Shown: positions 5,165 to 51,778 of the stretch, piece by piece
Layout: every line of letters starts with the position of its first letter
How positions within the stretch are numbered: position 1 is the first letter of the stretch
NCBI GenBank assembly: GCA_038062115.1
Contig: JBBTXS010000004.1
Location: 69,009-133,008, forward strand
Length of the DNA stretch: 64,000 nucleotides
Source: Patescibacteria group bacterium
GTDB taxonomy: Bacteria > Patescibacteriota > Microgenomatia > Levybacterales > UBA12049
Reading direction: 5' to 3'
Notes under the pieces: generated by a model
The model's input: only the letters and a program-made list of their open reading frames with translations
What the model was told of the DNA's origin: nothing
Database searches by the model: none
Program-made: the position numbers and the translations under genes

Positions 5165-6130
5165 ATGAAAAAGAAATCTAAAGATAAAAATATTCTGATT
5201 ACTGGTGGTAGCGGTTTTATTGGATCTAATTTTTTAAGTTATGCTTTAGGACAAGACAATAGCAATAGCAAGAATGATTTAAACTTAAAAAAATTACAAT
5301 ACAGAATAATAGCTCCCAGTCATGGAGAATTAGACATTCTTAATATAAATCAACTAAGGAATATGTTTAAAGATCTCTCTCCGGAAATTGTAATCAATTT
5401 TGCAGCGCATAGGGATGCAAATTCCGCTGAGCTTCAAAGAGGTAATATAAATGGACCAGTTTGGAAAACTAATGTTAAAGGAGTTGGGAATATATCCAAA
5501 GTTTGCCAGGAATATGGTAGTTTTTTTATTCATATTTCGACAGATATGGTTTTTTCTGGTAATCGTGATAATCATGGTCCTTATGATGAAAAAACTAAGC
5601 CAGAGATGAGATTGGAAAATCTTTCATGGTACGGATGGACAAAAGCTGAAGGAGAACGTGTTCTCGCAAGTAATAAAAAAACTGCAATAATTAGGGTCGG
5701 AAACGTAACCAACATTCTTTATGATCCTAAGCTTGATTATGTAGGAAAAATATTGTTTTTATTTGACCACGGTAAACTGTATCCGTTATTCAATAATCAG
5801 TATCTCACGTTAACGTATATCCCTTCAATATTCGAAGTTATAGAAGTACTTATTGAGAGCAAAATAGATGGTATATTTCATGTAGCCAGCAAAAACGTCT
5901 TTACCCCTTATGGGCTGGGTGAATATTTGATTAAAAAAATACGAAATAAGACAGGTGTGATAAGAAGTATAAGTATAAATGACTATCTTAAAAAATCGCC
6001 TAATAGGTATCCCAAATATGGGGGTCTTTTGGCAGAAAAAACTGGGCAGCAATTACAAGTAAAATTATTTGATTGGGAGCAAATTGTTGATTTTTATGTA
6101 GATAAAATGGAATCATCTTTTCACGAGTGA
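5165..6130 (+). CDS. NAD(P)-dependent sugar-nucleotide reductase, dTDP-4-dehydrorhamnose reductase (RmlD)-like
   Basis: ILITGGSGFIGSN, INFAAHRD, HISTDMVFSG, WYGWTKAEGE (YxxxK). Confidence 0.6.
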   Translation: MKKKSKDKNILITGGSGFIGSNFLSYALGQDNSNSKNDLNLKKLQYRIIAPSHGELDILNINQLRNMFKDLSPEIVINFAAHRDANSAELQRGNINGPVWKTNVKGVGNISKVCQEYGSFFIHISTDMVFSGNRDNHGPYDEKTKPEMRLENLSWYGWTKAEGERVLASNKKTAIIRVGNVTNILYDPKLDYVGKILFLFDHGKLYPLFNNQYLTLTYIPSIFEVIEVLIESKIDGIFHVASKNVFTPYGLGEYLIKKIRNKTGVIRSISINDYLKKSPNRYPKYGGLLAEKTGQQLQVKLFDWEQIVDFYVDKMESSFHE

Positions 6131-15014: not shown

Positions 15015-15026
15015 TATAATTCATTC

Positions 15027-15398
15027 ATGAAGAAAATCCTAGCTAAAGCCCTCACATCTGAAAATATTGAAAAGATTGAGAAAATGATCTCTTTTTTAAA
15101 AGAAAATAAAAAAATAGTTTTAGCTCTTCTTGTTGTTTCCATATTTGTCGATATTTTTTTTGTAAAGACGAGTTCAGATATCGTGATTTTTAGCATCTTA
15201 TTTCTTTATGGAATTTTTATAAAAATTTTTCAAATAAAGGGCAGGCGGACTTTTTTGTTATGTCTTGCATTGCTGGTCGCTATGTTTATTAATTTTCTTT
15301 TTACCGGTCCTTCAATACCAACAGAAAAAGCAGCGGTATGGCTAGTTCTTTTTATGGCATTGGGAATTTTTCAACAATGGAGAGAATCTGCTAGATGA
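15027..15398 (+). CDS. small integral membrane protein
   Basis: 123 aa with 3 hydrophobic helices. ATGA overlap with the following gene suggests translational coupling. Confidence 0.4.
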   Translation: MKKILAKALTSENIEKIEKMISFLKENKKIVLALLVVSIFVDIFFVKTSSDIVIFSILFLYGIFIKIFQIKGRRTFLLCLALLVAMFINFLFTGPSIPTEKAAVWLVLFMALGIFQQWRESAR

Positions 15399-18300
15399 AA
15401 TATCGATTTATCCCCTCCTTTATAATTACGCTTTTTCTATTTCTTGCCCCGTTCTTCTGGTTTAAGGAAGGAAAGATGGATTTAGGAGGGGACAGTAGCA
15501 GGTTGTATTTCTATGATCCATTGCACTATCTTGCCAGTCAAGCACTCTATGCGATTTCTCACTCGGGGCTTGGAGGGGAGGGTCTAAGCTACTTTGGCAT
15601 ACCTTTTTTCTTATTTTTGGCTGGGCTTAAAAATATCCTTATCTCTCCAACACTTTTAATTGCTTTTGTTCATGGGTTTTCTTTAAGTATCGCATTCTTC
15701 TCCTGTTACCTTATTGTTAAACAGTTGCTTTTCCAAGACGAAGAAAAGAAAACAACACGCACTATCGTGATTACTGAAATCTGTGCTCTTATAGCAGGAT
15801 TGTACTATGTGTCTGCCCCGGTTTCTACCTTAATCTGGAGTCATATGCTGTTGACTGATAACCAGATATTCTTAAATCCCCTTATCTTCTTATTACTTCT
15901 TAGATATTTACTGACTCAGAATATGAGATACCTCTTTGTTGTTCTTGGGATTACATTTTTGTTCGCGGCAAACTTTAGTATTGTTGGAGCGCCGGCATTC
16001 TTTGCTTTTTATCCCCTGAGCCTTTTGTTTCTGGTTCTTTACACGATGTTTGTTGTACGCAAGCCGCTTCCGTTGAAAGGCATTGTCGTTGGAGTTATTC
16101 TGTTTTTTCTTTTACATGCGTTTCATCTTGCGCCCCAGATTGAGAGTCTTTTGACACCGGGAAGCCCTACTAACAATCTTGTGTTTTCTCAAGGAGCAAA
16201 GCTCGATAGCGGTCTTGGGTACTTTAATGCGCTTGTACCAGGTATTAAGCCGAGCATAAGTCTTTTGGGTTTACAGCAAATGGCGCCGCTCACTTTTTTC
16301 TCTTTTGTCTTTATTATCTTTCCCGTTGTGTTTGTTCTTGGACTCTTATGGAATAGCAGAAAATCAATGCTTTTAACCGGTATTTTTTTCCTCATTACCT
16401 TATTTTTTGTTACAGCAAATATTACAGCCATAGGACTCAAGTTTTATATGCTGCTCTTTCATATTCCCGGCTTTTCTATGTTTCGTGTTTTCTTCGGACA
16501 GTGGATGTGGGTTTTTCTGTTTTTTTATACACTGATTTTGGGTCAAGCGCTTTTAGTAGTCTTGGCTCGCATAAAAAAATGGCAGGGGATTTCACTTGTA
16601 TTATTCCTTATAGTGTTTTTAATAATTATCGCCTTGCCCTTCATTATAGGGAAAACCCTCCAGTATATCCATTGGCAAACGAAAGACGTAAGCGCAATTG
16701 TCGCTATGGATCCAAAATATGAAGAAGTCCTTTCATACCTTCGATCGCTCCCTATTGACGGAAAAATTCTTTCTCTTCCGCTTACAGATCCCGGCTATCA
16801 GGTGGTAAAAGGTGATAATGACGCAGCGTATGAAGGTCCTTCAATGATCACGTATCTTGCGGGAAGAAACGAGTTTATGGGTTTTGTCGAGTTTGAGTCC
16901 TTTGGCACAAGCTTTTTAAAAGCTGTAAAGGCAAGGGACTACGTTGCTATCCGTGACATCTTGGTTATGCTCAATATTAGGTACATTTACTACAACGAAG
17001 ATCCTTACATTTATGGAGATAACTTTCCAGGGCAACCCTATATTCATGTCAGCAATTTTCTTCCTGATACCCAAGCGGGTTACAAAGAGTTTATTAAAAA
17101 CTTAGGCGTCAAAGAGATAAAAACGATCGGAGATAAGTACCATATCTATGAAATCGATGATGCTTCTTATTTACCGCATATTTATGCGGCAGGGAAGATA
17201 GCGTACTGGAGTGATTATCTTGTAAATTTGCATACTCCACTCTCTTTTTATACACAAGACAAGCGAGTAGCTTTTTACGATGATAGTAAAATCTTAGAAA
17301 GACACCCAGAGATTTTTAATGACGTTCTTTTCAAAGCACAAAACAAAAGTTCTATTTTCGATTTTTTTAAGGTTAAGAAACTTCCCAGGTTTGTTTCTCC
17401 CACTGTGAAGCAAAAACTTTCTTCTGTACTGTATCCCTTCATTGTGCTGCGTGAAAAAATAGATCTTGCTCGATTTAAGGCTGTAAACGACCGCTATATA
17501 GATAGGAGCGTTTATTTTATAGAAAAACGTATTAATGAGTTGGCAAAGTGGGCAGGAGAAATACCAATATTCGGAAATGTTAAAAGTATAACTTATTTAA
17601 GCAATATTTGGCTAGAGCCAAAATTATGGGAGCTCCACAAGTATAAGGAATATAATTCATGGGAGGTTACGCTTGTTAGATACCAACAGTCAGTAGAAAA
17701 ACTTATTGATGCGTTAGAGAAAACAAAACAATCAAATTACTCAACTATTACAAATAAAGTTGAGCTGAAAAATGACCTCATAAAACATCAGAATAAGCTG
17801 CGACAAGCAATACGTGAAGATTCCGCAAAGTCAATATATGATAAAAAATATCTTCTGGATTTAGTTGACGGAATGTTTGCTGACATTCTTGATAAGCTAA
17901 ATCTTGATTTGCCGGATGATTGGATCATACCCTATGAGGTTAGAAATCCATTAGGGAATGGAATATATCAGGTTTATGTTAACAAAGATGATATAAAAAA
18001 TTTAGACATAACACTTAGTATTGATGGGAAGAGTATCTCGTCAAGACCCTTGGATACAGGTGAATGGATAAGGTTTGACGATATTCTTGTTAAGAATAAA
18101 CCTTTTTTGCGTGTTGCTATTAAGATAAATAAGATTCCAAATCTTGTTAGTGAGACAAAGTGGAAAACGGCCGAAGAAAGAAAAGGGGAGCTACTTACGC
18201 AAGCAAAAGTAGAGGGAGCTAAACAAAAAGACACTGGGGAAGGCGTAACAACTCTTACAATATCATACAGTTATTTAGGTAATACAAGCGGATTAATTCG

Positions 18301-19219
18301 CGATATCAGCAAATGGAGAGAAGATTCAATTTATGTTATTTCATTTGACTATCTCACTTATGATCAGAATTTTCTATTTACGCTATATGAGAGAGGAGGA
18401 ACAAAAAAGAACCGGTATGTGAATAATACACATAGTGAAATATTGCGTTCAAAAGAATGGAAGGAGTTTAGCGGGGTAATTCTTTCTAGGAACGATGCGC
18501 AATCTGCCTTTTTGCAAATTTCCAAAGATCAGGATGATATTCAAGGTCAAAATTACACGGAAGGCATAAAGAAAATTGATATAAGAAACTTATCGGTATT
18601 AAGAATTACCGATTCTCAGATTGCTGATCCTCGTATTGTCTTTAAAAAAGTAGTAAAAGCAAAAGAAAGATCGACTCCTCAAGTTATTTTTACAAAAATA
18701 AATCCGACCAAGTATAAAGTAACAATCCATGGCGCAAAAGATCCATACGCTCTTGTTTTGTCTGAAAGATTTAATCCAAAATGGAAGCTATTTCTTCCTA
18801 ATGGAGTCAATGAAGCAAAAACTCTAAAAGGCTTGATTTCAAGAACTTTAGGAGAGATTTTTTCATCTATTCTTCATGCGAATAATATTGTTATTTCATC
18901 AGAAGCAAGCAAAGAAATTTTGACCAGTTATTTTAATGACAATGTTATTGAAGGAATGCATAAAAATATTTTTTTGGATAGAAACACTTTTGAAACGTTT
19001 GGACAAGACCCGATTCTCGAGAAGACGCATTTGCCGGTAAATGGATACGCGAACGCTTGGTATATCAGTCCGGAAGATGTACAGAATAAGGAAGATTATA
19101 CGCTAATCATCGAAATGACTTCTCAAAAATTATTCTATGGAAGCTTGCTGATATCATTAGGGGGACTTTTGTTGCTGTTTTTTCTGTTTCTAAAATCGTT
19201 TATACAAATACGAAAGTGA
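15395..19219 (+). CDS. GT-C-type membrane glycosyltransferase, AftD/DUF3367-like, paralog 3 of 4, with a large extra extracytoplasmic region
   Basis: 1274 aa. FWFKEGKMDLGGDSSRLYFYDP, IPGFSMFRVFFGQW, FNPKWKLF...NGYANAWYI. It has about 430 more residues than paralog 2 between YLPHIY and INPTKY. Confidence 0.55.
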   Translation: MKYRFIPSFIITLFLFLAPFFWFKEGKMDLGGDSSRLYFYDPLHYLASQALYAISHSGLGGEGLSYFGIPFFLFLAGLKNILISPTLLIAFVHGFSLSIAFFSCYLIVKQLLFQDEEKKTTRTIVITEICALIAGLYYVSAPVSTLIWSHMLLTDNQIFLNPLIFLLLLRYLLTQNMRYLFVVLGITFLFAANFSIVGAPAFFAFYPLSLLFLVLYTMFVVRKPLPLKGIVVGVILFFLLHAFHLAPQIESLLTPGSPTNNLVFSQGAKLDSGLGYFNALVPGIKPSISLLGLQQMAPLTFFSFVFIIFPVVFVLGLLWNSRKSMLLTGIFFLITLFFVTANITAIGLKFYMLLFHIPGFSMFRVFFGQWMWVFLFFYTLILGQALLVVLARIKKWQGISLVLFLIVFLIIIALPFIIGKTLQYIHWQTKDVSAIVAMDPKYEEVLSYLRSLPIDGKILSLPLTDPGYQVVKGDNDAAYEGPSMITYLAGRNEFMGFVEFESFGTSFLKAVKARDYVAIRDILVMLNIRYIYYNEDPYIYGDNFPGQPYIHVSNFLPDTQAGYKEFIKNLGVKEIKTIGDKYHIYEIDDASYLPHIYAAGKIAYWSDYLVNLHTPLSFYTQDKRVAFYDDSKILERHPEIFNDVLFKAQNKSSIFDFFKVKKLPRFVSPTVKQKLSSVLYPFIVLREKIDLARFKAVNDRYIDRSVYFIEKRINELAKWAGEIPIFGNVKSITYLSNIWLEPKLWELHKYKEYNSWEVTLVRYQQSVEKLIDALEKTKQSNYSTITNKVELKNDLIKHQNKLRQAIREDSAKSIYDKKYLLDLVDGMFADILDKLNLDLPDDWIIPYEVRNPLGNGIYQVYVNKDDIKNLDITLSIDGKSISSRPLDTGEWIRFDDILVKNKPFLRVAIKINKIPNLVSETKWKTAEERKGELLTQAKVEGAKQKDTGEGVTTLTISYSYLGNTSGLIRDISKWREDSIYVISFDYLTYDQNFLFTLYERGGTKKNRYVNNTHSEILRSKEWKEFSGVILSRNDAQSAFLQISKDQDDIQGQNYTEGIKKIDIRNLSVLRITDSQIADPRIVFKKVVKAKERSTPQVIFTKINPTKYKVTIHGAKDPYALVLSERFNPKWKLFLPNGVNEAKTLKGLISRTLGEIFSSILHANNIVISSEASKEILTSYFNDNVIEGMHKNIFLDRNTFETFGQDPILEKTHLPVNGYANAWYISPEDVQNKEDYTLIIEMTSQKLFYGSLLISLGGLLLLFFLFLKSFIQIRK

Positions 19220-21291
19220 GAAAATCAAACATTTTTTATACTTTGCTTTTTTTTGGTTTTATTTTTTTTATATTTCGTAATTGGTTTCTTGCGCCTCAGA
19301 TTATTGGTGGAGACTGGCCATATCTTTTTCCTGAAATGCTGCGGGATCCTTCAATATATTTTTCTTCCTGGAATCCCGGACAAGGCAACGGTCTTGGTGG
19401 GATAAACCCTGTCTATTCTTTGAGCATGTTTTTCGGCTTCACTGTCTTTTTGGCGCACACATTTAACATTCCATGGGTATTTATTTATAAGTTTTTTTGG
19501 TTTGCTCTTCCGCTACTTTTTGGAATTTTCTCTAGTATTTATTTGGTAAAAACTATTCTCCCACAATCATCTCTATGGCAGAAATTGCTTTCTTCATCTA
19601 TTTTTATCACAAATACATATTTTCTTATGATTGTTGGAGGCGGACAAATGGGAGTTGCCTTATCTTATGCCATTGCGCCACTTGTTCTCGCTAAATTTAT
19701 AAAACTTATTGACAATCTCCTTTTAAATAAAAATTTCAAATTTCAAATTTCAAATGTCAAATACGCAATAATTAGCGGATTATTTTTGACATTACAGGTT
19801 ATGTTTGATCCAAGAATTGCTTACTTAACAATGATTGCCGTGAGCGTGTATTATGTATTTTGTATTAGGTATTACATATTGAAAAGAAATATACTTAATA
19901 CTTTATACTTAATACTTTATGCTCTTGTGATTCCTGTTAGTATTGCCTTGCTTCTTCATGCAGCATGGATACTTCCTATTTTATTTCTTCAATCAAGCCC
20001 TATCCCGCAAGGATTTACAAGTGTTGAGGGATTTCGCTTTTTTAGTTTTGCAGATGTTTCTCACGCTTTTTCTTTGCTGCATCCAAATTGGCCAGAAAAT
20101 ATTTTCGGCAAAATATATTTTATGAGAAGTGAGTTTATTTTAATACCGATATTAGCTTTTTCATCGCTGTTATTTTTAATCAATTCAACAATAAAGCAAG
20201 TCAACAATAAGGCAATATTATTCTTTGCTCTTCTTGGATTGATTGGAGTATTTTTAGCAAAGGGCGTAAGGGATCCTTTTGGGCAAGTGAATCAATGGCT
20301 CTTTATTTCTATTCCTGGAATGAGTTTTTTCCGAGATCCAACAAAATTCTACTTATTAATAATACTATCTTATTCAGTGCTCATCCCTTTCAGTTTATTA
20401 CAAATTTCAAGGAAAGTATCAAGTATCAAGTATCAAGTATTAGGCAAAAAAATAAATATGCATAATACATACTACATAATACTCGCTACTTTTTTGGTAT
20501 TCTGGTTATTTTTGATCCGCCCTGCTGTTTTTGGTGAACTTGGTGGTACATTTCAAAAACGTGAAGTACCAGAAGAATACGTAAAACTTAAAGATTTTCT
20601 ACATAGTCAGCCTGATTTTTTTAGAATTTTATGGATTCCCCGTCAGCACCGTTTTACTTACTATTCTTTAACGCATTTACCTGTTGAGGCTGAGCCGCTC
20701 TTTAAGAAAGCAAAAATTATAGATATCGTTAATCAGCTGCGGAAGCCCGGGACAAAGAAATATCTGTCAGAACTTAGTATAAAATATATCATTGTTCCAT
20801 ACGATCCAAATGGTGAAATTTTTGTAAAAGATAGAAAATACGATGAAGTTGCGTATCTTAAGGCAATCGAGCACCTAGAGGATATACCATGGCTAGTAAG
20901 ATCGAGACAATTTGAAAAAATTGCAGTGTTTGAAGCGAAGAGTTCCCCGAAAGCTCTTTTTTGGCTAGAAGAAAAAGGGAAAATTACTTATTCCACAGAC
21001 GACATTACGCATTATAATATTAATGTTGAAATCGATTCCCCGCAGAGGCTTATTTTCTCAGAAAATTTTCATCCAAAATGGCAGTTGGTACTTAGTAATA
21101 GAGTAATTCATGCACAGGAAACCGATGAAGGATTGAATAGTTTTTTATTGAGCAAGGGAAATTATCAGGGAAATATAGTATTTTCTGGAGATAAATACTA
21201 TGTGTATGGAAAAATTATATCTTTAAGTACGATGCTTTTAGTAGTTGTCTTTTTTTTTGTAATTCATAAGAAAAAAGTATACAATACATAA
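19216..21291 (+). CDS. GT-C-like polytopic membrane protein, distant paralog 4 of 4
   Basis: 691 aa, GTG start in a GTGA overlap. GGDWPYLFPE near the N-terminus, IPGMSFFRDPTKFY, FHPKWQLV C-domain motif, terminal TM. Carries two in-frame repeat arrays. Confidence 0.45.
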   Translation: MRKSNIFYTLLFFGFIFFIFRNWFLAPQIIGGDWPYLFPEMLRDPSIYFSSWNPGQGNGLGGINPVYSLSMFFGFTVFLAHTFNIPWVFIYKFFWFALPLLFGIFSSIYLVKTILPQSSLWQKLLSSSIFITNTYFLMIVGGGQMGVALSYAIAPLVLAKFIKLIDNLLLNKNFKFQISNVKYAIISGLFLTLQVMFDPRIAYLTMIAVSVYYVFCIRYYILKRNILNTLYLILYALVIPVSIALLLHAAWILPILFLQSSPIPQGFTSVEGFRFFSFADVSHAFSLLHPNWPENIFGKIYFMRSEFILIPILAFSSLLFLINSTIKQVNNKAILFFALLGLIGVFLAKGVRDPFGQVNQWLFISIPGMSFFRDPTKFYLLIILSYSVLIPFSLLQISRKVSSIKYQVLGKKINMHNTYYIILATFLVFWLFLIRPAVFGELGGTFQKREVPEEYVKLKDFLHSQPDFFRILWIPRQHRFTYYSLTHLPVEAEPLFKKAKIIDIVNQLRKPGTKKYLSELSIKYIIVPYDPNGEIFVKDRKYDEVAYLKAIEHLEDIPWLVRSRQFEKIAVFEAKSSPKALFWLEEKGKITYSTDDITHYNINVEIDSPQRLIFSENFHPKWQLVLSNRVIHAQETDEGLNSFLLSKGNYQGNIVFSGDKYYVYGKIISLSTMLLVVVFFFVIHKKKVYNT
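19732..19759. repeat. 7-nt tandem array AATTTCA x3 + AATGTCA, in-frame
   Basis: Read directly from the sequence. Translates as NFKFQISNVK inside 19216..21291. Confidence 0.85.
20416..20483. repeat. composite repeat: GTATCAA x3 + GTATTAG, A-rich spacer, TACAWAM heptamer array; in-frame
   Basis: Read directly. Translates as VSSIKYQVLGKKINMHNTYYIIL. Shares the 18-mer TACATACTACATAATACT and its overall layout with 51183..51265. Confidence 0.85.
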
Positions 21292-30360: not shown

Positions 30361-30909
30361 ATGAAAATAGGAATTGATATAAGTCAGCTTGCGTATGAGG
30401 GAACAGGGGTTTCCTCATTTGTTGCAAGATTGGTTGAGGATTTGTTGAAGATTGATAGTAAAAATGAATATATTTTGTTTTTTTCGTCCCTGCGGAAACA
30501 ATTTCTAATTTCTAATTTCAAATTTCTAAATAAATCCCAAATCCAAAACCCCAATTTAAAAATTAAGGAGTTTAGGTTTCCGCCGACCCTGCTTGATATT
30601 TTATGGAACAGACTTCATATTCTACCGATTGAGTGGTTGATTGGGGATGTTGATATTTTTATTACTTCCGATTGGACAGAGCCGCCGACAAGAAGCGCTA
30701 AGAAGGCGACGATTTTGTACGATTTAATTGTTTACAAATACCCAAACGAAACAGATAGAAAAATTGTTGAGACGCAAAAGAGAAAGCTTAAGTGGGTAAA
30801 AAAAGAAACAGATATTATATTTTGCATCTCAGAGGCAACAAAAAAAGATGCTATAGAAATATTAGGGATTGAAGAGAGTCGTTTAAAAGTTATTTATCCA
30901 GGAATTTAA
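30361..30909 (+). pseudogene. GT4 glycosyltransferase, N-terminal domain only (C-terminal catalytic half missing)
   Basis: MKIGIDISQLAYEGTGVSSF...VIYPGI then a stop. The full-length paralogs at 38270, 47727 and 59477 continue for about 200 aa after the equivalent (Y/S)(P/E/G)G(I/V) position. Its stop codon interlocks with the convergent enolase stop on TTAA. Confidence 0.6.
30500..30564. repeat. composite repeat: AATTTCT/AATTTCA heptamers + AAATAAATCCCAAATCC tail; in-frame
   Basis: Read directly. Translates as QFLISNFKFLNKSQIQNPNLKI. The 14-mer AAATAAATCCCAAA is shared with 48289-48302. Confidence 0.8.
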
Positions 30910-32171: not shown

Positions 32172-34438
32172 CTCTTGCCCTGTTCGATATTATATATAAC
32201 CCTTCGGGTTTTATTGATCACATCCGGAGCAACAGATACACTATCAATACCCCAGCGTATCAGGTTTTTGACAAGCTCAGGATAATTTGACGGAGCTTGC
32301 CCGCATATAGAGCAAAGTATTTTATATTTGCTGCATGTTTTTACTATTTTCTCAATCGCTATTTGGACTGCTTTGTTCATTTCATTAAAAGACTCTGTTA
32401 GTTTGCTATTGTCTCTATCAACACCCAAAACCAGCATGGTTAAATCATTTGACCCAATAGACACGCCATCAATTCCTACTTTTATAAAATCTTCCAAGAT
32501 TATAAAATTCGATGGGATTTCTGCCATCATATACAATAATAAATCTTTGCCCCTTTTAAGCCCAGATGCGGCAATAATTTTTTTGACCTCAATGAGCTCA
32601 TCAACTGTTCTTACAAAGGGGAGCATGATGTTTAGATTGGTAAGTTTTTTTACGTTTCTAACGTACTTTATGGCCTCAAGCTCCAGCATGAATACATCTT
32701 TGTCATGAATATATCTTGATACGCCACGGTATCCAAGCATTGGATTTTCTTCTTGCTCTTCATATTTTTCTCCACCAATAAGACCCCTATATTCATTTGT
32801 TTTAAAATCAGTTGTCCTAAAGATTACTGGCCTTGGATAAAAAGCTCCACAAATAGTTGCTAGATCCTTTGCCAAACTATCAGTAAAAACTTTTCCCTTA
32901 CCCTCACTTATTAATTTTTTTGGATGAATTCCAATTCTTGCTACCATAAATTCTGCTCGAAGGAGTCCAATGCCATCAACATTGCCTTTTGCAACCTCAA
33001 CTGCTCTTTGGGGTTCTGCAATATTTACAAAAACTTTTGTTTTGGTTTTAAGTTTGGCTGCTTCTGTATCTTCTTTTTTCTCGCTTTTTATAGATATAGC
33101 GCCTTCATAAACTTTTCCTGTATCACCAACTACTGTAATCTTCATTCCGTCTTTTAATATAGATAAAGCATTTTGGGCACCAACTATTGCTGGAATTCCA
33201 AATTCTCTAGAAACAATTGCGGCATGGGATGTTCTTCCTCCTCTTTCTGTAACAATTGCGGATGATTTTTTCATAATAGGAACATAATCAGGATTTGTAT
33301 AAGGAGCAACAAGAATATCATGAAGCTTAACTTTATCAGCGTCTTTTATGCTTTTGACTATTTTAACCTTTCCTATTGCAACACCTGGACTTGCAGGATC
33401 GCCTGTCAGAATTGGTTCTGGAAGTTTTGATGTTGAGAGTGAAATATTGTTTTTTTGATTGTTAATTGTTAACTGTTTATTGTTAATTGTTGTCACAGGT
33501 CTTGTCTGGACGATATAGAGAGTTTTTCCTTCCTTCGCCCATTCAATATCTTGAGGATAATTGTAATGCTTTTCAATAAGTTTTCCTAAACTTGCAAGTA
33601 AAACTATATCTCCATCTTCTAGTTTTTGACGTGAACCTTTACGGCTAGTTAATCTTATATCTTTATTTTCTCCATTTTGAAGCCTTAACATATTTTTTTG
33701 CGGTTCTACTTTTTTTGCCACAATTTTTAAAGAATCCTTGTTTACTTCGTAGTGATCTGGTGTTACTTTTCCTCCAACTATATATTCGCCTAGCCCGTAA
33801 ATTGCTTCGATTGCTATAGTCTTCCTATCATGCGTTACTGGATCTATTGTAAACATTACGCCAGAAGATTTTGAATCAACCATTTTTTGGACAACTAAAG
33901 ATATAGCAACTTTATTATCGTTAAGTTTATTTTCGTGTCTGTAAAACATAGCCCGTGCCGTAAAAAGCGATGCCCAGCCACCCAAAATTGCTTTGGTTAA
34001 GTTTTGGTTGCCTGAAACGTTAAGAAATGTCGCTTGCTGGCCTGCAAACGATGCGGTTTTTGAATCCTCGGATGTTGCAGAAGATCTTACTGCCACATGC
34101 GCATTTTCTCCTAGTTTTTTATAATGCTGCAAAACTGCATCAAGTATTTTAGGACTAATTGTTCCTCTTACAATAACATCTTTAATTTTTTTTGAAGAGT
34201 TGCTTAAGGAGTTTGGATCTTTATAATCTGTAGATTTCATTATTTTTTGTATTTTTTGCTTGAGATTATTTTCTTTTATGAACGTTTGATAGGCAGTTGA
34301 TGTTATAACAAAGCCATTGGGGATTGGAAAATTTGCTCTTAGCATTTCGCCAAGATTAGCAGCTTTTCCTCCGACATATGGAGCGAGCCTTTTGTCTATT
34401 TTGGACAGCCACAAAACAAAATCTTTTTGAGCGTTCAT
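32168..34438 (-). CDS. ppsA: phosphoenolpyruvate synthase (pyruvate, water dikinase)
   Basis: 756 aa. N-terminal PEP/pyruvate-binding domain (VGGKAANLGEM), swivel domain GGRTSHAAIVSREFGIPAIVG, C-terminal TIM barrel (GIGLLRAEFM, SIGSNDLT). A repeat-derived insert sits in the linker. Confidence 0.85.
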   Translation of the reverse strand: MNAQKDFVLWLSKIDKRLAPYVGGKAANLGEMLRANFPIPNGFVITSTAYQTFIKENNLKQKIQKIMKSTDYKDPNSLSNSSKKIKDVIVRGTISPKILDAVLQHYKKLGENAHVAVRSSATSEDSKTASFAGQQATFLNVSGNQNLTKAILGGWASLFTARAMFYRHENKLNDNKVAISLVVQKMVDSKSSGVMFTIDPVTHDRKTIAIEAIYGLGEYIVGGKVTPDHYEVNKDSLKIVAKKVEPQKNMLRLQNGENKDIRLTSRKGSRQKLEDGDIVLLASLGKLIEKHYNYPQDIEWAKEGKTLYIVQTRPVTTINNKQLTINNQKNNISLSTSKLPEPILTGDPASPGVAIGKVKIVKSIKDADKVKLHDILVAPYTNPDYVPIMKKSSAIVTERGGRTSHAAIVSREFGIPAIVGAQNALSILKDGMKITVVGDTGKVYEGAISIKSEKKEDTEAAKLKTKTKVFVNIAEPQRAVEVAKGNVDGIGLLRAEFMVARIGIHPKKLISEGKGKVFTDSLAKDLATICGAFYPRPVIFRTTDFKTNEYRGLIGGEKYEEQEENPMLGYRGVSRYIHDKDVFMLELEAIKYVRNVKKLTNLNIMLPFVRTVDELIEVKKIIAASGLKRGKDLLLYMMAEIPSNFIILEDFIKVGIDGVSIGSNDLTMLVLGVDRDNSKLTESFNEMNKAVQIAIEKIVKTCSKYKILCSICGQAPSNYPELVKNLIRWGIDSVSVAPDVINKTRRVIYNIEQGKR
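33445..33491. repeat. 7-nt array (coding-strand AACAATT family, about 6 units), in-frame in the ppsA interdomain linker
   Basis: The plus strand reads TATTGTT..GATTGTT AATTGTT AACTGTT TATTGTT AATTGTT. Translates on the minus strand as TINNKQLTINNQKNN. Confidence 0.8.
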
Positions 34439-38269: not shown

Positions 38270-39472
38270 ATGTTGATTGGTATTGACGGCAACGAGGCTA
38301 ATGTAGAAAAAAGAGTTGGGGTTGGAGAATACTCCTTTGAACTACTTCGGCAGCTCAAAGAATCTAGAATTCAGAATCTAGAATTCAGAATCTATTTAAA
38401 AAGAAAACCTCAAGATGATTTTCCAAAAGAATCCACAAACTGGCAATATCGAATTATCGGACCGCGCAAACTGTGGACGCAGATAGGATTACCATTTGAT
38501 TTGTATTTCCATAAACCAAAACCCGATGTGTTTTTTACACCCACCCATTATGCTCCACGCTTTTCTCCTATTTCAACTGTAATTTCAGTAATGGATTTAT
38601 CCTACATCCATTTTCCTGAGATGTTTAAACCTTCAGATTTGTATCAGCTTAAGAATTGGACGGGATATTCAGTGAGAAATGCAAAAAAGATCTTAACTAT
38701 CAGCAGAGCCAGTAAAGATGATATAATCAAATTGCATCAAGTGTTAGAAGAGAAGGTGGTAGTTACTTATCCAGGAATAAAAGTCAAAAGTCAAATGTCT
38801 CCGCCAAAGGCGGATCAGCCTCTGGCTGAAAAATCCAAAATGCAAAGTTCAAAAGTGCTTAAAGAAAAATATAAGATTGAAGGGGATTATATTTTGTTTG
38901 TGGGGACGCTGCAGCCGAGGAAGAATATTGTGAGGCTTATTGAAGCATTCTCAAGGATTATACACCCCCGAGGTGTGCGTGCCGTCGCAAACCACCTCGG
39001 GGGTGGCCGAATGGACTCCCCCGAGGTGAACTATTTGGTCATTGTTGGTAAAAAGGGATGGTTATACGGGGAGATATTTGAGGCTCCTAAGAAGTTTGGA
39101 GTAGAAGATAGAGTTAAGTTTTTAGATTTTGTTCCCGATGAAGATCTTCCTCTTTTTTATCAAAATGCTCTTTGCTTTGTTTTGCCAAGTCTATATGAAG
39201 GGTTTGGTTTGCCGGTTTTGGAAGCAATGCAATACGGCTGCCCTGTAATTACAAGTAATGTCAGTAGTCTTCCCGAGGCAGGAGGAGATGCGGCACTTTA
39301 TGTAAATCCGCTGGATGTTGAGGACATTAAAAAAAATTTAGAATTCATAATTCAGAGTTCAGAATTACGTAAAAAGCTTATCGAAAAAGGATATAAACAA
39401 GTTAAAAAGTTTAGTTGGGAGAAAACAGCGAGAGAAACTTTGAGCGTATTGGAGGACGTGGCGAGAACTTGA
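38270..39472 (+). CDS. glycosyltransferase family 4 carrying four in-frame repeat-derived segments
   Basis: [42 protein letters not shown]. Paralog of 47727 and 59477. Confidence 0.85.
38363..38390. repeat. 7-nt array TCTAGAA TTCAGAA x2 (perfect 14-mer x2), in-frame
   Basis: Read directly. Translates as [10 protein letters not shown]. Only this reading frame of the array lacks stops. Confidence 0.85.
38780..38857. repeat. 78-nt composite: AAAGTCA heptamers, twin GC hairpins TCCGCCaaaGGCGGA + TCAGCCtctGGCTGA, then AAAATSC-type heptamers; in-frame (26 codons)
   Basis: Read directly. Translates as [26 protein letters not shown] in the interdomain linker. Confidence 0.8.
38963..39031. repeat. 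GC-rich 69-nt element, copy E1, in-frame (23 codons)
   Basis: CCCCCGAGGTG (38965-38975) and an identical copy (39018-39028) are both perfectly complementary to CACCTCGGGGG (38993-39003). Translates as [23 protein letters not shown]. Confidence 0.8.
39337..39364. repeat. 7-nt array TTTAGAA TTCATAA TTCAGAG TTCAGAA, in-frame
   Basis: Read directly. Translates as [11 protein letters not shown] near the C-terminus of the GT4. Confidence 0.75.
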
Positions 39473-39475
39473 ATT

Positions 39476-40042
39476 ATGAATAATGAATTAGAAATTAAGG
39501 TTAAAAACAGAATCAAGACAATTTTGCTGGAATTTGCAGTTATGAAATTGCATTTTGTTGGTTTTGTGCCTTCACATCATTTCCGTAGATTTTTCTATAG
39601 ATTAGCTGGAATAAAAATTGGTAAAGGATCAACACTCCATACAGGTACAAGATTTTATAATCCATCTAATATAGAAATTGGGCAAGATTCTATTATTGGT
39701 GAGGGAACTGTTTTAGATGGGAGAGATAAACTAATAATTGGCAATCATGTTGATATTGCCTCAGAAGTTATGATTTATAACTCCGAACACGATGTGCAAA
39801 GCGATGATTTTCGTGCAGTTACTGCACCGGTAATAATTGAAGACTATGTTTTTATCGGTCCTCGTGCAATCATTTTGCCAGGGGTTAAAATCGGTAAAGG
39901 AGCAGTAATTGGGGCTGGGGCTGTGGTTACAAAGGCTGTTAAGAGTTTCGCAATTGTTGGAGGTGTGCCTGCACAAAAGATTGGAGAAAGAAAGATTAAA
40001 GATCTTAAGTATAAATTAGGAAGAGCGGCGTGGTTTAGATAA
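39476..40042 (+). CDS. hexapeptide-repeat (LbH) sugar O-acetyltransferase, WcaF/maltose-acetyltransferase-like
   Basis: IGKGSTLHTGTRF..IGQDSIIGEGTVL..IGNHVDIASEV..IEDYVFIGPRAIILPGVKIGKGAVIGAGAVV hexapeptide repeats. Confidence 0.8.
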   Translation: MNNELEIKVKNRIKTILLEFAVMKLHFVGFVPSHHFRRFFYRLAGIKIGKGSTLHTGTRFYNPSNIEIGQDSIIGEGTVLDGRDKLIIGNHVDIASEVMIYNSEHDVQSDDFRAVTAPVIIEDYVFIGPRAIILPGVKIGKGAVIGAGAVVTKAVKSFAIVGGVPAQKIGERKIKDLKYKLGRAAWFR

Positions 40043-40141: not shown

Positions 40142-41035
40142 ATGACATTTCTATCAATAGTTATTCTTTCCTATAACACAAAAGACTTAACGCTTTCTTG
40201 CTTGCAATCGTTGATAGAACAATACAGAAAGGAGTTAAAAAGTGGGACGGTTGAGATTATTGTTGTTGATAATGCGTCAACTGATGGCTCGGTAGAAAGT
40301 ATTAAGTATTATGTATTAAGTAGTAAGTATAAAGACGTTAGATTAAGGGTTATAGAAAATGACGAGAATTTGGGGTTTGCTAAGGGTTGTAATATAGGGG
40401 CAAAAAAATCAAAAGGGAAATATATTCTTTTTCTAAATTCGGATACACAAGTGCTAGACAAGGGTTTTTTGAAAATGATAGGGTTTTTAGATAGTAATCA
40501 AAAAGTTGGAATTTTGGGAGGAAGGCTTTTAAATCCAGACAATTCACCCCAACCATCTGCTGGAAAATTTTACAATCTTTTTAATTTATTTTTAATGCTT
40601 ATAGGTAGCGAAAGATTTGGATTACTCCGTAAAAGTCCCAAAAATATTGAAAGAGTTGATTGGGTAAGCGGAGCATGTTTGATGATAGGGAAAAGCGTAT
40701 TTGATCAACTAAAGGGATTTGATGAAAATTTCTTTATGTATATCGAAGATATGGAACTGTGCTTTAGAGCAAACAAACTTGGTTTTTTAACTTATTTTTA
40801 TCCAGATATCAAGATAATACATAAAGAACTTGGAAGTAGCAATCGGTCTTTTGCTATAATACACATCTATAAAGGGCTTTTGTATTTTTACTCCAAGCAC
40901 AAAGGTTACTTTCAATATATTATTGCCAAAGTAATGCTAGAAGTGAAAGCTAAAGTCGGAATTGTTGTCGGTTTCCTTATTGGCAATTCTTCCTTAAAGA
41001 AAACTTACATTGAGGCAATAAAATTTAAGATATGA
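40142..41035 (+). CDS. glycosyltransferase family 2
   Basis: LSIVILSYNTKDLT, VVDNASTDGS, LGFAKGCN, LFLNSDT, FFMYIEDMELCFR. Confidence 0.85.
   Translation: MTFLSIVILSYNTKDLTLSCLQSLIEQYRKELKSGTVEIIVVDNASTDGSVESIKYYVLSSKYKDVRLRVIENDENLGFAKGCNIGAKKSKGKYILFLNSDTQVLDKGFLKMIGFLDSNQKVGILGGRLLNPDNSPQPSAGKFYNLFNLFLMLIGSERFGLLRKSPKNIERVDWVSGACLMIGKSVFDQLKGFDENFFMYIEDMELCFRANKLGFLTYFYPDIKIIHKELGSSNRSFAIIHIYKGLLYFYSKHKGYFQYIIAKVMLEVKAKVGIVVGFLIGNSSLKKTYIEAIKFKI
40299..40333. repeat. 7-nt array GTATTAA GTATTAT GTATTAA GTAGTAA GTATAAA, in-frame
   Basis: Read directly. Translates as SIKYYVLSSKYK directly after the DNASTDGS motif. Confidence 0.85.
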
Positions 41036-46831: not shown

Positions 46832-47730
46832 ATAAAAAAATTGATGTATCAATTGTTGTAGTTACCTACAACTCGTTTGACACCATAAAAGAATGCATTG
46901 ATTCTATTGAAAAAACCGTTAAAAAAAACTCATTTGAAATTGTTGTTGTTGACAATAATTCATCGGATGGATCCGCAGAGGGTATTAAGTATTATGTATC
47001 AAGTATTAAGTATGAGAACGTTAGAATTATTCCAAATAAAAAAAACATAGGGTTTTCGAAGGCCAACAATCAGGGCGTCAAAATTTCACAAAAAAGCCGT
47101 TATGTTTTGTTTTTGAATCCCGATGCAATCGTTTATGAAAACACTATTGATGGGATGGTGGATTTTATGAACAAAACTCCCAACGCGGGAGCGGCAACGT
47201 GTTTTATAGAGCTTAAAAATGGCAGACTTGACGATTCCTGCCACAGAGGGTTTCCTACACCTTGGAGGTCTTTATGTTATTTTATGGGTTTATCAAAGTT
47301 TTTTCCAAAAAGTAAATTTTTTGCAGGGTATAACATGACCTATCTTGGTCTTAATAAAACTCACGAGATAGATGCTCTGGGAGGGTCTTTTATGCTGATA
47401 AGGCGCGAAATAGGCAAAAGATTGGGTTGGTGGGACGAAGACTTTTTCTTTTATGGAGAAGATATAGACTTTTGTTTTAGAATAAAAGAAATAGGGTATA
47501 AAATATATTTTGTACCCGAATATAAAGCGCTTCATTACAAAGGGGTTTCAAGCGGAATAAAAAAAGTTTCGGAGTCAATAAGCAAAGCAACAAAAGAAAC
47601 AAAACTTTTTGCAACAAAACATAGATTTAACGCGATGCGAATTTTCTACAAGAAACATTATGAAAAAAAGTATCCAAAAATTGTTACGTGGCTTGTTTAT
47701 GGGGCAATTTGGGCTAAAGAACATTTATGA
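46828..47730 (+). CDS. glycosyltransferase family 2
   Basis: VSIVVVTYNSFDT, VVDNNSSDGS, IGFSKANN, LFLNPDA, FFFYGEDIDFCFR. ATG 46828 (ATGA overlap) is preferred over the track start 46816. Confidence 0.85.
   Translation: MNKKIDVSIVVVTYNSFDTIKECIDSIEKTVKKNSFEIVVVDNNSSDGSAEGIKYYVSSIKYENVRIIPNKKNIGFSKANNQGVKISQKSRYVLFLNPDAIVYENTIDGMVDFMNKTPNAGAATCFIELKNGRLDDSCHRGFPTPWRSLCYFMGLSKFFPKSKFFAGYNMTYLGLNKTHEIDALGGSFMLIRREIGKRLGWWDEDFFFYGEDIDFCFRIKEIGYKIYFVPEYKALHYKGVSSGIKKVSESISKATKETKLFATKHRFNAMRIFYKKHYEKKYPKIVTWLVYGAIWAKEHL
46982..47016. repeat. 7-nt array GTATTAA GTATTAT GTATCAA GTATTAA GTATGAG, in-frame
   Basis: Read directly. Translates as GIKYYVSSIKYE. 37 of 42 nt are identical to 40299-40340 by my count. 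Confidence 0.85.
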
Positions 47731-48869
47731 AAATAGGAATTGATGCTAGGCTTTGGAATGAGTCGGGAGTTGGAAAATACACTAGGAATCTTGTTGAACA
47801 GCTTCAGATAATTGATCGCAAGAATGAGTACATGTTGTTTGTTTTAAGTCAAGATAGAAAAAAGATTCTGAATCAAGTTCAGAATGACAATTTTAGCATA
47901 GTAAATGCAGACATAAGGTGGCATACACTGGAAGAGCAGATGAAGTTTTCATCGATAATTAATAAAGAAGATTTGGATTTAATGCACTTTACTTATCCTT
48001 CGGTTCCTATTTTTTACAATAAGCCTTTTATTGTTACAATTCATGATTTAATTTTGCATCATTTTCCGACAGGAGAAGCCTCAACTTTGGCTTTGCCTTT
48101 ATATTATTTAAAGCACTTCGCATACAAATTAGTGATTTTGCAAGCAGCAAAAAAGGCAAAAAGAATTATTGCAGTATCAAAGGCTACAAAAAAGGAGATT
48201 ATTGACCATCTTAGAGTACCAGAAAAAAAAGTAGTGGTAATATATGAAGGGGTAAGTAACGAGATTACAAATCCAAAATCTCAAATTCCAAATAAATCCC
48301 AAAATCCTAAATACAAAATACTTAATACTAAATACTTTTTGTACGTTGGGAATGCATATCCGCACAAGAACCTAGAGCGAATGCTTATGGCATTCGCAAG
48401 TATTAAGTATAGAGTATTAAGTATAAAGTTGGTTTTTGTTGGCAGAGAGGATTATTTTTACAAAAGATTAAAAGAAAAGGTAAAAAATATGGGTTTAGGA
48501 AAATCAGTGAATTTTTTAGGAGAAGTTAGCGATGATGAATTGATCTGTCTTTATAGAGATGCGAGAGCATTAGTTATTCCATCCTTGATGGAAGGGTTTG
48601 GGCTTCCAGCGTTGGAAGCCATGGCAAATAAATGTTTAGTTTTAGCATCAGATATTCCTTCGTTGAAAGAGGTCTGCGGAAATGCGGCAATTTATTTTGA
48701 TCCTTATGGTATTGATGATATATCAAAAAAAATGATAGAGGTTTACTCTAATGACATAAATCATTATAGTAGCAATATCAACAAAGGTTTTGAAAAAACA
48801 AAAATATTTTCTTGGGAGAAAATGACAAGAGAAACTCTAAAGGTATACGAAAGCTGCGTTGGCGGCTGA
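47727..48869 (+). CDS. glycosyltransferase family 4 carrying at least three in-frame repeat-derived segments
   Basis: MKIGIDARLWNESGVGKYT, LYVGNAYPHKN, PSLMEGFGLPALEAMANKCLVLASDIPSLKE. Confidence 0.85.
   Translation: MKIGIDARLWNESGVGKYTRNLVEQLQIIDRKNEYMLFVLSQDRKKILNQVQNDNFSIVNADIRWHTLEEQMKFSSIINKEDLDLMHFTYPSVPIFYNKPFIVTIHDLILHHFPTGEASTLALPLYYLKHFAYKLVILQAAKKAKRIIAVSKATKKEIIDHLRVPEKKVVVIYEGVSNEITNPKSQIPNKSQNPKYKILNTKYFLYVGNAYPHKNLERMLMAFASIKYRVLSIKLVFVGREDYFYKRLKEKVKNMGLGKSVNFLGEVSDDELICLYRDARALVIPSLMEGFGLPALEAMANKCLVLASDIPSLKEVCGNAAIYFDPYGIDDISKKMIEVYSNDINHYSSNINKGFEKTKIFSWEKMTRETLKVYESCVGG
47875..47902. repeat. half-unit of the GTCATT/ATGACAATT palindromic family (hairpin ATTCTGAA-tcaag-TTCAGAAT + GACAATT end), in-frame
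   Basis: Read directly. Translates as ILNQVQNDNF. Confidence 0.7.
48267..48334. repeat. composite repeat: AAATCY heptamers + AAATAAATCCCAAAATCC + four reverse-orientation GTATTAA-family units (TAAATAC AAAATAC TTAATAC TAAATAC); in-frame
   Basis: Read directly. Translates as NPKSQIPNKSQNPKYKILNTKY in the interdomain linker. Confidence 0.8.
48400..48427. repeat. 7-nt array GTATTAA GTATAGA GTATTAA GTATAAA, in-frame
   Basis: Read directly. Translates as SIKYRVLSIK, at the same alignment position as the GC-rich element E1 in the 38270 paralog. Confidence 0.85.
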
Positions 48870-50300: not shown

Positions 50301-50536
50301 TTAAAGATAAGAATGTAAGAAGTTCCAGGATGTGGGACAAATACTAGAACTGGCGACTTGCCATATTTTTCTTTTAATCTCTTGAATCTTTCAAGTGCCC
50401 TTTTGCCACGTGCTAAAGGAACAACTTCCTTATCTACTACAAATACCTGTTTTCCACCATACTTTTTAACCAGAGGATGTAAACCAGAAAGCAGTGCGTT
50501 TAATGTTTTTCCTGTTTTATCCTCTATTTTTTTCAT
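50297..50536 (-). CDS. small DUF5678-like protein, translationally coupled to the aspartic protease
   Basis: MKKIEDKTG...YGGKQVFVVDKEVVPLARGKRALERFKRLKEKYGKSPVLVFVP. ATGA overlap with the protease gene. The longer track ORF (to 50704) overlaps the divergent GT4 start region and was trimmed to Met57. Confidence 0.5.
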   Translation of the reverse strand: MKKIEDKTGKTLNALLSGLHPLVKKYGGKQVFVVDKEVVPLARGKRALERFKRLKEKYGKSPVLVFVPHPGTSYILIFK

Positions 50537-50632: not shown

Positions 50633-51778
50633 ATGAAAATTGCATTGGTGTATGATCGGGTAAATAAGTGGGGAGGGGCAGAGAGAGTGCTTTTGGCATT
50701 GCATGAATTATTTCCAGATGCACCTATTTACACTTCGGTTTACAATCCAATAACTGCATCTTGGGCTAAAACTTTCGATGTTAGAAGTTCATTCTTGCAG
50801 AAATTTCCTTTGGCATCTATAGCTCATGAGTTATATGCGGTCTTGATGCCCATTGCCTTTGAAAGTTTTTCTTTTGACCAATATGATCTTGTAATTTCAG
50901 TTACGAGTGAGGCTGCAAAAGGGATAATAACCAAACCAAAAACAAAGCATATTTGCTATTGTCTAACTCCAACCCGTTATCTTTGGAGTGCTTACGATGA
51001 TTACTTTAGAAATCCCTTATTGCGATTTCTATCAAAACCAGTAGTTTCGTATCTTAGGACTTGGGATAAAATTGCAGCGCAAAGGCCAGATGCGTACGTT
51101 GCAATTTCTCAAGAGGTCAAAAGAAGAATTAAAAAATATTATGGGAGAGAGTCAGTGGTTGTATACCCGCCAGTAGACATCAGTAGTATGTATCATGTAT
51201 CAAGTATTAAGTATAAAAAAAATGCAAATGAAATACATAATACAAACTACATACTACATAATACTGTCGATTACTTCCTCATCGTCTCTCGGCTTGTTCC
51301 ATACAAACGAATTGATATTGCGATTAGAGCATTTAATAAGCTTAGACTTCCATTAAAAATTATTGGCGTAGGGTCACAAGAAAAGTATCTTAAAAGCATC
51401 AGTAGCCCAACTATAGAATTCCTTGGCAACTTGACTGAAGATGAGTTAGTAAGCTATTATAAGGGATGTCGTGCTTTAATTTTTGTAGGTGTTGAAGATT
51501 TTGGTCTTACTGTTTTGGAGGCACAGAGTTTTGGAAAACCCGTGATTGCGTTTCGCGGAGGCGGTACACTGGAGACTATAAAAGAAGGAAAAACTGGTGA
51601 GTTTTTTAGTCAACAAAATCCAAAATCACTTACAGATGTGCTTAAAAGATTCGATGAAAGAAAATATAAAAGTACTGACTGCATAGAGAATGCTAAAAAG
51701 TTTTCGTTTGAAAGATTTAAAGAAAAGCTTATGGATGTCGTTGCGAGGAGTTTAGCGACGAAGCAATCTCAAATTTGA
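50633..51778 (+). CDS. glycosyltransferase family 4
   Basis: MKIALVYDRVNKWGGAERVL, FLIVSRLVPYKR, VGVEDFGLTVLEAQSFGKPVIA. Start trimmed from 50579 to ATG 50633. The last 14 codons and the stop lie inside a palindromic repeat. Confidence 0.85.
   Translation: MKIALVYDRVNKWGGAERVLLALHELFPDAPIYTSVYNPITASWAKTFDVRSSFLQKFPLASIAHELYAVLMPIAFESFSFDQYDLVISVTSEAAKGIITKPKTKHICYCLTPTRYLWSAYDDYFRNPLLRFLSKPVVSYLRTWDKIAAQRPDAYVAISQEVKRRIKKYYGRESVVVYPPVDISSMYHVSSIKYKKNANEIHNTNYILHNTVDYFLIVSRLVPYKRIDIAIRAFNKLRLPLKIIGVGSQEKYLKSISSPTIEFLGNLTEDELVSYYKGCRALIFVGVEDFGLTVLEAQSFGKPVIAFRGGGTLETIKEGKTGEFFSQQNPKSLTDVLKRFDERKYKSTDCIENAKKFSFERFKEKLMDVVARSLATKQSQI
51183..51265. repeat. composite repeat: five GTATYAA-family units, A-rich spacer, four TACAWAM units; in-frame
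   Basis: Read directly. Translates as SSMYHVSSIKYKKNANEIHNTNYILHNT. Same architecture and orientation as 20416..20483. Confidence 0.85.

Follow-up and report, generated by a model that had tools for sequence, protein, structure and literature searches.

Short palindromic repeats lying in frame within unrelated protein-coding genes were reportedly described in Rickettsia, by Ogata and co-workers in 2000, as the Rickettsia palindromic elements (RPE). The RPE occupy permissive surface positions and are translated within the host protein. They are 100-150 nt long and share a family consensus without an internal 7-nt periodicity. A different class of repeats, the simple sequence repeats (SSRs), includes heptanucleotide repeats, which are the commonest long SSR class in prokaryotes according to a passage in PMC4679880 that cites Mrazek 2007. 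TAACTGA repeats are known from Beggiatoaceae, Cyanobacteria, and Bacteroidetes (MacGregor 2015, PMC4679880), and the cyanobacterial short tandemly repeated repetitive (STRR) sequences are a related class. SSRs also act as frameshift switches in glycosyltransferase (GT) genes of Haemophilus, Neisseria, and Campylobacter (PMC2651432, PMC11868660). A literature search joining bacteria of the Candidate Phyla Radiation (CPR) with SSRs or phase variation gave no match. Here, we describe heptanucleotide arrays, often arranged as inverted pairs, inside protein-coding genes of a Patescibacteria group bacterium, a very small groundwater organism whose closest named relatives are Levybacteria. The DNA analysed, referred to as the window, is a stretch of 64,000 nt from a contig of 374,945 nt (assembly GCA_038062115.1, contig JBBTXS010000004.1, positions 69,009 to 133,008 of the forward strand; protein MEK7533892.1 and neighbours). 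On balance, we lean towards the view that these arrays form part of a dispersed family of fold-back repeats with 7-nt units. Such repeats would lodge in permissive coding segments and then behave as slippage-prone microsatellites and quasi-palindromes, with frameshifting as a side effect.

A preliminary description of this DNA had reported one composite element of about 70-80 nt in two unrelated genes. Both look-alike segments are real, with the coordinates and sequence given there, and the hosts are indeed unrelated. The segment called site B lies in a gene for a GT-C-like membrane protein of 691 aa (19216..21291, plus strand), the fourth of four tandem paralogues, which has no Pfam hit. The other, site F, lies in a GT4 glycosyltransferase gene (50633..51778, plus strand). 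Site B (20414-20483) has the sequence AAGTATCAAGTATCAAGTATCAAGTATTAG / GCAAAAAAATAAATA / TGCATAATACATACTACATAATACT. Its plus arm (20414..20443) is composed of GTATCAA x3 + GTATTAG, is translated as VSSIKYQVL, and was scored by Tandem Repeats Finder (TRF) as 3.9 copies of period 7 with 100% matches. The A-rich centre GCAAAAAAATAAATA occupies 20444..20458, and the minus arm (20459..20483) consists of reverse-complement units ending in the 17/18-mer TACATACTACATAATAC(T). Site F (51183-51265) has the sequence GTAGTATGTATCATGTATCAAGTATTAAGTATAAA / AAAAATGCAAATGAA / ATACATAATACAAACTACATACTACATAATACT, with a plus arm at 51183..51217 (GTAGTAT GTATCAT GTATCAA GTATTAA GTATAAA), an A-rich centre at 51218..51232, and a minus arm at 51233..51265 that ends in the 18-mer common to both sites. 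The proposed collinearity of the copies at 20416-20483 and 51183-51265 holds, as each runs from a GTATYAA array through an A-rich centre into an inverted array. Global alignment of 20410-20490 with 51177-51271 gave 66 identical columns out of 96 and a score of 97.5, compared to 45.8 +/- 6.1 for shuffles. The earlier unit bookkeeping (4 versus 5 plus-units, minus arms of 26 and 33 nt, spacers of 14 and 15 nt, and a net difference of +15) is self-consistent, but alignment places the gaps differently (3+2+3+7) and the split is partly arbitrary. The argument that a net +15 keeps both frames open is invalid, since the frame of each host is set by the length of its own insert and not by the difference between the hosts.

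Exact copies of the 18-mer TACATACTACATAATACT span 20466-20483 and 51248-51265. When up to 3 mismatches are allowed, the window contains 11 matches compared to 0.10 expected; for the plus-arm 18-mer GTATCAAGTATYAAGTAT there are 20 compared to 0.24 expected. One explanation considered was that the two hosts share a VSSIKY...HNT peptide motif through convergence or common ancestry, or that they resemble each other by plain chance. The plus arm is in an identical codon phase in both hosts, so that the VSSIKY peptide is common to them. However, the terminal 18-mer is in codon phase 2 at site B (TYYIIL) and in phase 0 at site F (YILHNT), the minus arm is on the opposite strand elsewhere, non-coding copies exist, and the 11-20 matches far exceed the 0.1-0.24 expected. 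Because the 18-mer is translated in differing frames, the resemblance between B and F is one of shared DNA and not of peptide. The frame analysis refutes the peptide-level reading, and we give this explanation as a whole next to no credence. The earlier statement that no peptide ancestry is shared is therefore correct; the opposite-strand copy belongs to another phylum.

The two segments are part of a larger set, so the idea of a two-copy element was not borne out. Period-7 arrays of GTATNNN or its reverse complement, of the GTATYAA type, number 10 in the window, at six sites in five genes, and all window GTATYAW copies are inside open reading frames (ORFs). TRF reported 19 period-7 arrays with at least 3 copies; the other units among them were AAATTTC, AATTTCT, ATTGTTA, AGAATTC, AATTCAG, and CAAATCC. 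A unit-agnostic detector found 9 period-7 arrays in the window compared to 1, 0, 0, 0, and 0 for periods 5, 6, 8, 9, and 10, and 12 compared to 0 for other periods in four orthologous loci. The window arrays have 3-5 units with 80-100% matches, and orthologues include perfect tracts with 4-5.5 units. Inverted arms are present at sites A, B, E, and F, and the arrays at C and D are single. Site A (19847..19920) shares its gene with B and has a plus arm at 19847-19875 and a minus arm at 19890-19920. Site C (40292..40334, plus strand) is a single plus array in a GT2 gene, immediately 3' of VDNASTDGS, and site D (46982..47016, plus strand) is a single plus array in a paralogous GT2 gene at the same codon position. 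Site E (48302..48429) has a minus array at 48302-48338 and a plus array at 48398-48429, which surround the conserved GT4 core FLYVGNAYPHKN.

All the window arrays are in permissive places, namely domain linkers, loops, and gene ends. Site F exactly fills the gap between the two Pfam domains of its GT4 host. The loop that carries site B is about 14 aa longer than in the three tandem paralogues, which are without B, and sites C and D add 4-5 residues in the helix after VDNxSxDGS of the two GT2 paralogues. Within one glycosylation cluster, several GT genes together contain several arrays. No frame of a perfect (GTATTAA)n array is free of stop codons. Within the window ORFs, 13 of 29 out-of-frame unit positions retain TAA, compared to 0 of 14 in-frame positions. 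Since no in-frame TAA is retained, the imperfection of the arrays is partly imposed by the reading frame.

In orthologues, the same positions carry other units. Among 120 GT4 orthologues that are 59-75% identical, the segment from VVYPPV to YFLIVSRL, the length of which includes conserved flanking residues, varies by 56 aa (28 to 84), and the linkers sort into discrete types. A lag-7 autocorrelation peak (0.42-0.75) was present in every GT4 linker in the DNA of five loci, with differing units. These were GTATYAW in the window and locus L386, AGCGTTC / TAAACGC in L387, GAAGATR / ATCTWCC in L388, and AAATATC + AAAATAC in L389; in the nearest relative, L429, the unit is (AAATTCG)3. Core identity of the GT4 proteins is 72.7% within a linker type compared to 71.8% between types, the nearest neighbour has a matching type in 12 of 68 cases, and pairs that are 88-94% identical in the core have unrelated linkers. 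Linker type and the remainder of the gene vary almost independently, and the type is uncoupled from the host-gene tree. At the GT2 site, orthologues keep the codon positions and about 5 units, which are GTATTAA-type, (CAATTTC)5, (AAATCTC)5, or (ACATCTC)4; one orthologue is without an array. The site B composite is present in about 18 of 59 orthologues (50-68% identical), the rest having other heptamer-type peptides or nothing. Orthologues of both hosts without the segment had been envisaged in the preliminary description. At site B some carry nothing, but at site F the nearest ones carry other heptamer arrays. In some orthologue peptides (for example P0166, P0053, P0043, P0212), small GC-rich palindrome-like inserts, such as FPPIAGSRFGGT, FGPSFHSDESSERAGRG, and IPALPAGRSN, are nested in AT-rich heptamer arrays. 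They recall the small dispersed repeats nested in Nostoc heptamer arrays, which Elhai and co-workers are said to have described in 2008.

The arm sequences also recur at unrelated sites. A 32-mer from site D, with two degenerate positions, was found in 19 metagenome stretches of 28-48% GC, with locations that include GT2 genes, other proteins, gene boundaries, and intergenic plus-spacer-minus hairpins. In every case, the 17-mer TACATACTACATAATAC marks the outer end of a minus arm, namely at B (window and L413), at F (window and L409-411), and in L040, a stretch of a Moraniibacteriota metagenome-assembled genome (MAG) in which it lies in a PFOR-alpha gene that is on the opposite strand. Element B is identical to L412 at 62 of 68 positions (91%), with a spacer that is 100% identical, compared to 64% for the gene and 73-79% for the flanks. 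Similarly, array C matches L387 at 44 of 47 positions and its flanks match at about 68%. The inverted pairs in other genomes were plus-then-minus in 10 of 10 cases. At least 120 genome stretches contain GTATYAW x3.5. In viral contigs, GTATYAW was found in 77 stretches, two independent permuted units in 57-59, and the reversed pattern in 91, although this last control partly matches GTATYAW loci themselves. Since the permuted units are about as frequent as GTATYAW there, much of the taxonomic spread is generic background, and a wide spread was rejected as the sign of a special unit. Phage carriage was also rejected, as the viral 17-mers are in unrelated non-array contexts and the 32-mer has no viral match.

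Several other arrangements of the arrays were seen outside the window. In human-gut metagenome contigs (L391, L398, L407) and in L392 and L408, GTATTAA plus-spacer-minus fold-backs are located exactly between convergent genes, and the arrays provide the final codons and the stop codon of both genes. In L040 (Moraniibacteriota JBAQUL010000035, 5351-5775), a 125-aa PF05635 gene on the minus strand (E 2e-35) lies in a cargo-like manner between GTATYAW arrays in plus (5351-5382) and minus (5751-5775) orientation, and the arms, read by eye, agree at about 25 of 29 positions. PF05635 is the 23S rRNA intervening-sequence protein, a bAvd-like four-helix bundle. A second PF05635 gene, with weaker heptamer-like inverted flanks, is between gatC and gatA in L005. 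A general link between arrays and PF05635 was rejected because, of about 120 loci, tblastn detected the gene in only 2, and array flanking is clear in L040 alone. L005 is a contig of a Saccharibacteria MAG and also contains, at 3121-3343, two same-orientation GTATCAA arrays about 190 nt apart in an ORF that ends in ...KIFVLTGSLESMSRDEAK.... We take this ORF to be a putative NAD-dependent DNA ligase with the arrays in its presumed inter-domain segments. In-ORF arrays are present on several more contigs of this MAG (L036, L086).

Changes in array length were compared within one cluster of at least 90% identity, which is Levybacteria GW2011-like and orthologous to the site F GT4. L411 encodes a full-length 379-aa GT4 with AGCATCAAGCATCAAGTATCAAGTATCAAGTATAAAG. 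L409 (a 23.9-kb contig) and L410, which come from other samples, have exactly one 7-nt plus-arm unit fewer, and the gene is split into ORFs of 211 aa and 132 aa; there are otherwise 6 SNPs. This allele shows slippage directly. In another GT4 cluster of at least 90% identity, members of 371 aa and 391 aa are separated by a 60-nt deletion of the hairpin centre. As 7 is not divisible by 3, gaining or losing one unit throws the gene out of frame and cuts the enzyme short. In silico, adding or removing one unit at each of the 10 window arrays led to a stop within 2-53 codons. Two further candidates were rejected. An apparent frameshift in array D that splits the GT2 gene of L001 (21 kb, Hainich groundwater, 99.9% identical to the window) was due to an N run, an assembly gap, at 47115-47133, and the short members of other protein clusters were contig-end truncations or generally degraded genes, none of them broken at an array.

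In the reading that we lean towards, the arms are tandem 7-nt units (consensus GTATTAA; variants GTATCAA, GTATTAT, and GTAGTAT) and their reverse complement, usually arranged as plus then minus with an A-rich centre between them. Copies would survive only where the protein tolerates 10-30 extra residues, namely at gene ends, in surface helices, in loops joining membrane helices, and in linkers between domains. Translation would follow whichever frame they land in, and units giving an in-frame TAA would always be altered. Resident copies could then gain or lose whole units through replication slippage, lose their centres via hairpin-associated deletion, and be replaced by other heptamer families, and a one-unit change would shift the frame and truncate the enzyme. 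What was observed directly is the anatomy of the arrays, the period-7 excess, the dispersal of arm sequences, a single natural allele with one unit fewer, and a single deletion of the centre. We infer that copies spread between sites by some copy mechanism, be it MITE-like transposition (MITE, miniature inverted-repeat transposable element) or recombination from array to array. Most of this DNA would be selfish or neutral, and frameshifting a side effect.

A number of results weigh against a dispersed fold-back family. No target-site duplication was found: no direct repeat is common to the flanks of B, F, L040, L411, and L413, and a candidate duplication at F (GTAGAC / GTCGAT) was rejected because it is weak and neither L386 nor L429 reproduces it. 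In B, F, L040, L411, and L413, the 17-mer fixes the right end, but the left end varies. No transposase was found, although the window ORFs were not systematically screened for one. Arrays are also single (C, D) or at variable spacing (E), where they are 61 nt apart around a conserved core. Wholly different units are found at identical codon positions in orthologues, as with GTATTAA, (CAATTTC)5, and (AAATCTC)5 at D and the AGCGTTC, GAAGATR, and AAATTCG arrays at the position of F, and local array turnover without mobility would produce this pattern. A good part of the taxonomic spread of GTATYAW is generic microsatellite background. L001 has no array-length difference, the single slippage allele was found in an orthologue and not in the window genome, and the window arrays are short (3-5 units) and imperfect. 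The insertion of a DNA module suggested in the preliminary description can be kept in part. The arm sequences do recur in many unrelated contexts and site B does add about 14 aa relative to the three tandem paralogues, but a discrete 70-80-nt unit is unsupported, site B is old (about 18 of 59 orthologues have the composite), and the linker around site F is hypervariable and, in orthologues, is occupied by other heptamer arrays.

Another possible, though rather unlikely, explanation is a purely local origin, in which heptanucleotide microsatellites arise independently in place and the inverted arm is formed by intrastrand template switching (quasi-palindrome formation). Sites B and F would then be alike since an AT-rich genome and the need to avoid stop codons allow few units. 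Local origin would fit the different units at the same positions in orthologues, the perfect 4-5.5-unit arrays whose lineage-specific units indicate ongoing homogenisation, the observed slippage allele, the similar frequency of permuted units elsewhere, and the rank of heptamers as the commonest long SSR class in the passage mentioned at the outset. However, the 17-mer and the 32-mer, with the order of their unit variants kept, turn up again at unrelated sites and in further phyla, with some copies in non-coding DNA where no frame constrains them. Conservation of element B, with its spacer, greatly exceeds that of the host gene, and template switching alone does not predict the plus-then-minus order in all 10 pairs elsewhere. 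It is also possible that the arrays are selected contingency loci, in which reversible changes of one unit would switch glycosyltransferases and so vary the surface glycans. This model is based on tetranucleotide and homopolymer tracts in Haemophilus, Neisseria, and Campylobacter. The unit length that is not a multiple of 3, the several arrays in several GT genes of one cluster, the natural off allele with one unit lost in at least two assemblies, the truncation predicted in silico for each one-unit change, and the conservation of array positions and of a length near 5 units despite turnover of the unit sequence are all consistent with it. We nevertheless consider it improbable, as the tracts are short and, in the window genome, imperfect, many are mid-gene, and arrays are also in the PPDK gene, the PFOR gene, the linkers of the putative LigA, and intergenic DNA. 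In addition, the window's own population had no length heterogeneity.

A functional nucleic-acid element was weighed as well. This could be an mRNA or DNA hairpin acting in pausing, processing, or termination, or a row of 7-bp protein-binding sites, for which omega-type ribbon-helix-helix repressors or cold-shock proteins would be candidate binders. Compared to shuffles, the paired arrays form more stable folds (B, -12.2 kcal/mol, z -2.9; F, -19.6, z -4.2; A, -25.2, z -6.0; E, -35.7, z -5.5), with site A being the strongest hairpin. Element B and array C are conserved at the nucleotide level, and the intergenic copies between convergent genes are terminator-like. However, the single arrays C and D do not fold, and when seven composites are aligned, pairing is confined to the GUA/UAC cores (consensus energy of -1.6 kcal/mol), without real covariation. 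The changes between the window and L412 break inner pairs, an Rfam scan of the window gave no match at the arrays, and orthologues freely replace arms and centres. A selected RNA hairpin was therefore rejected despite the significant single folds, and the data give no support to a selected RNA structure for the arrays. We regard a functional element of either kind as very unlikely.

The window contains further heptamer arrays and some neighbouring features. An (AAATTTC)4.6 array is at 19731..19762 (plus strand) in the GT-C-like gene, and (ATTGTTA)4.9 (33458..33491) occupies the linker that joins PPDK_N to the mobile domain in the PPDK/PEP-synthase gene. TRF also found AATTTCT x4.3 and AAATCCC x3.3 at 30500..30554, an AGAATCT/AGAATTC array at 38359..38394 near the N-terminus of the GT4 encoded at 38270-39472, and a CAAATCC-type array at 48268..48312 that leads into site E. 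Additional arrays within 39335..39488 are at 39335-39366, in the 3' end of the GT4 gene 38270-39472, and at 39470-39488, where this gene meets the next one. The four tandem membrane-protein paralogues at 10294-21291 are large (768, 804, 1274, and 691 aa; about 23% identity) and essentially without Pfam assignment, apart from one weak TMEM260-like hit, and heptamer arrays are found only in the fourth. Just ahead of the site F host, a two-gene cassette on the minus strand (49890-50704) breaks the otherwise co-directional glycosylation cluster. It encodes a 136-aa retropepsin-like protein (weak Asp_protease_2 hit) and has a short upstream ORF, and it is absent at the equivalent position in L387 and L389. 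A perfect palindrome, ATTCTGAAC-nnn-GTTCAGAAT, is present twice (4 strand-matches compared to 0.01 expected), at 47864-47886 in the N-terminal part of the GT4 47727-48869 and at 56927-56949 in the intergenic DNA that precedes the gene at 57023, and may represent an operator or a further small palindromic repeat. The only Rfam match in the window is a DUF3800-V RNA at 62516-62612 (minus strand), which lies between ORFs 61814-62482 and 62672-63895 and scores 49.3 bits, with a gathering score of 37.4.

The inverted heptamer pairs in coding linkers, the position-conserved but unit-variable orthologue arrays, and their occurrence in CPR bacteria are new. A broader proposal, which we put forward only tentatively and consider doubtful, is that the arrays represent an undescribed superfamily of heptamer-armed fold-back mobile elements in CPR and other phyla, which would comprise several families with unrelated units, settle in permissive linkers and at gene boundaries, occasionally carry PF05635 cargo (L040), and provide the ultra-small CPR bacteria with frameshift switches for surface-glycan genes. 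The arrays account for the origin of many low-complexity, lineage-specific inserts of CPR proteins as translated DNA repeats and not as evolved peptide motifs, and the interdomain linkers of conserved enzymes can rank among the fastest-changing DNA in these genomes. The slippage-split glycosyltransferase makes surface-glycan phase variation in uncultured episymbionts directly testable with read-level metagenome data. The arrays will also cause split or 'pseudo' genes in MAG annotations and could serve as strain markers.

The arrays share features with several known systems. Like the RPE, they are palindromic repeats in frame at permissive positions and are translated with the host protein, but their arms are microsatellite arrays that slip by whole units and there is no whole-element consensus. 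The omega protein of pSM19035 offers another comparison, since this dimeric repressor binds contiguous 7-bp sites, direct and inverted, upstream of genes. Omega-type operator arrays have a similar geometry, but the location inside ORFs argues against this identity here. Like MITEs and REPINs (PMC3116915), the window elements have inverted arms, a variable centre, and many dispersed copies; unlike them, they have neither a target-site duplication nor a cognate transposase or RAYT that could be found, although no search aimed at a RAYT was made, their window copies are not extragenic, and their arms are not kept complementary beyond the GTAT core. Like SSR contingency loci, they place in a GT gene a tract whose unit is not a multiple of three, so that a one-unit change truncates the product, and a natural off allele exists. 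The known contingency tracts, however, are long, perfect mono-, tetra-, or pentanucleotide repeats near the 5' end, compared to the 3-5 imperfect heptamers found here, which are often mid-gene and hairpin-paired and would be only putative reversible switches. Another close match is to the long heptanucleotide SSRs (PMC4679880), with which they share tandem 7-nt units and a forward orientation that stops all three frames. As with the TAACTGA-type repeats (PMC4679880), the in-ORF copies are at the protein periphery or between modules and are scattered over phyla. They differ from the known heptanucleotide SSRs in being mostly in coding sequence, usually as inverted pairs around an A-rich centre, and in being short and degenerate, with codon positions that are conserved in orthologues while the unit sequence differs.

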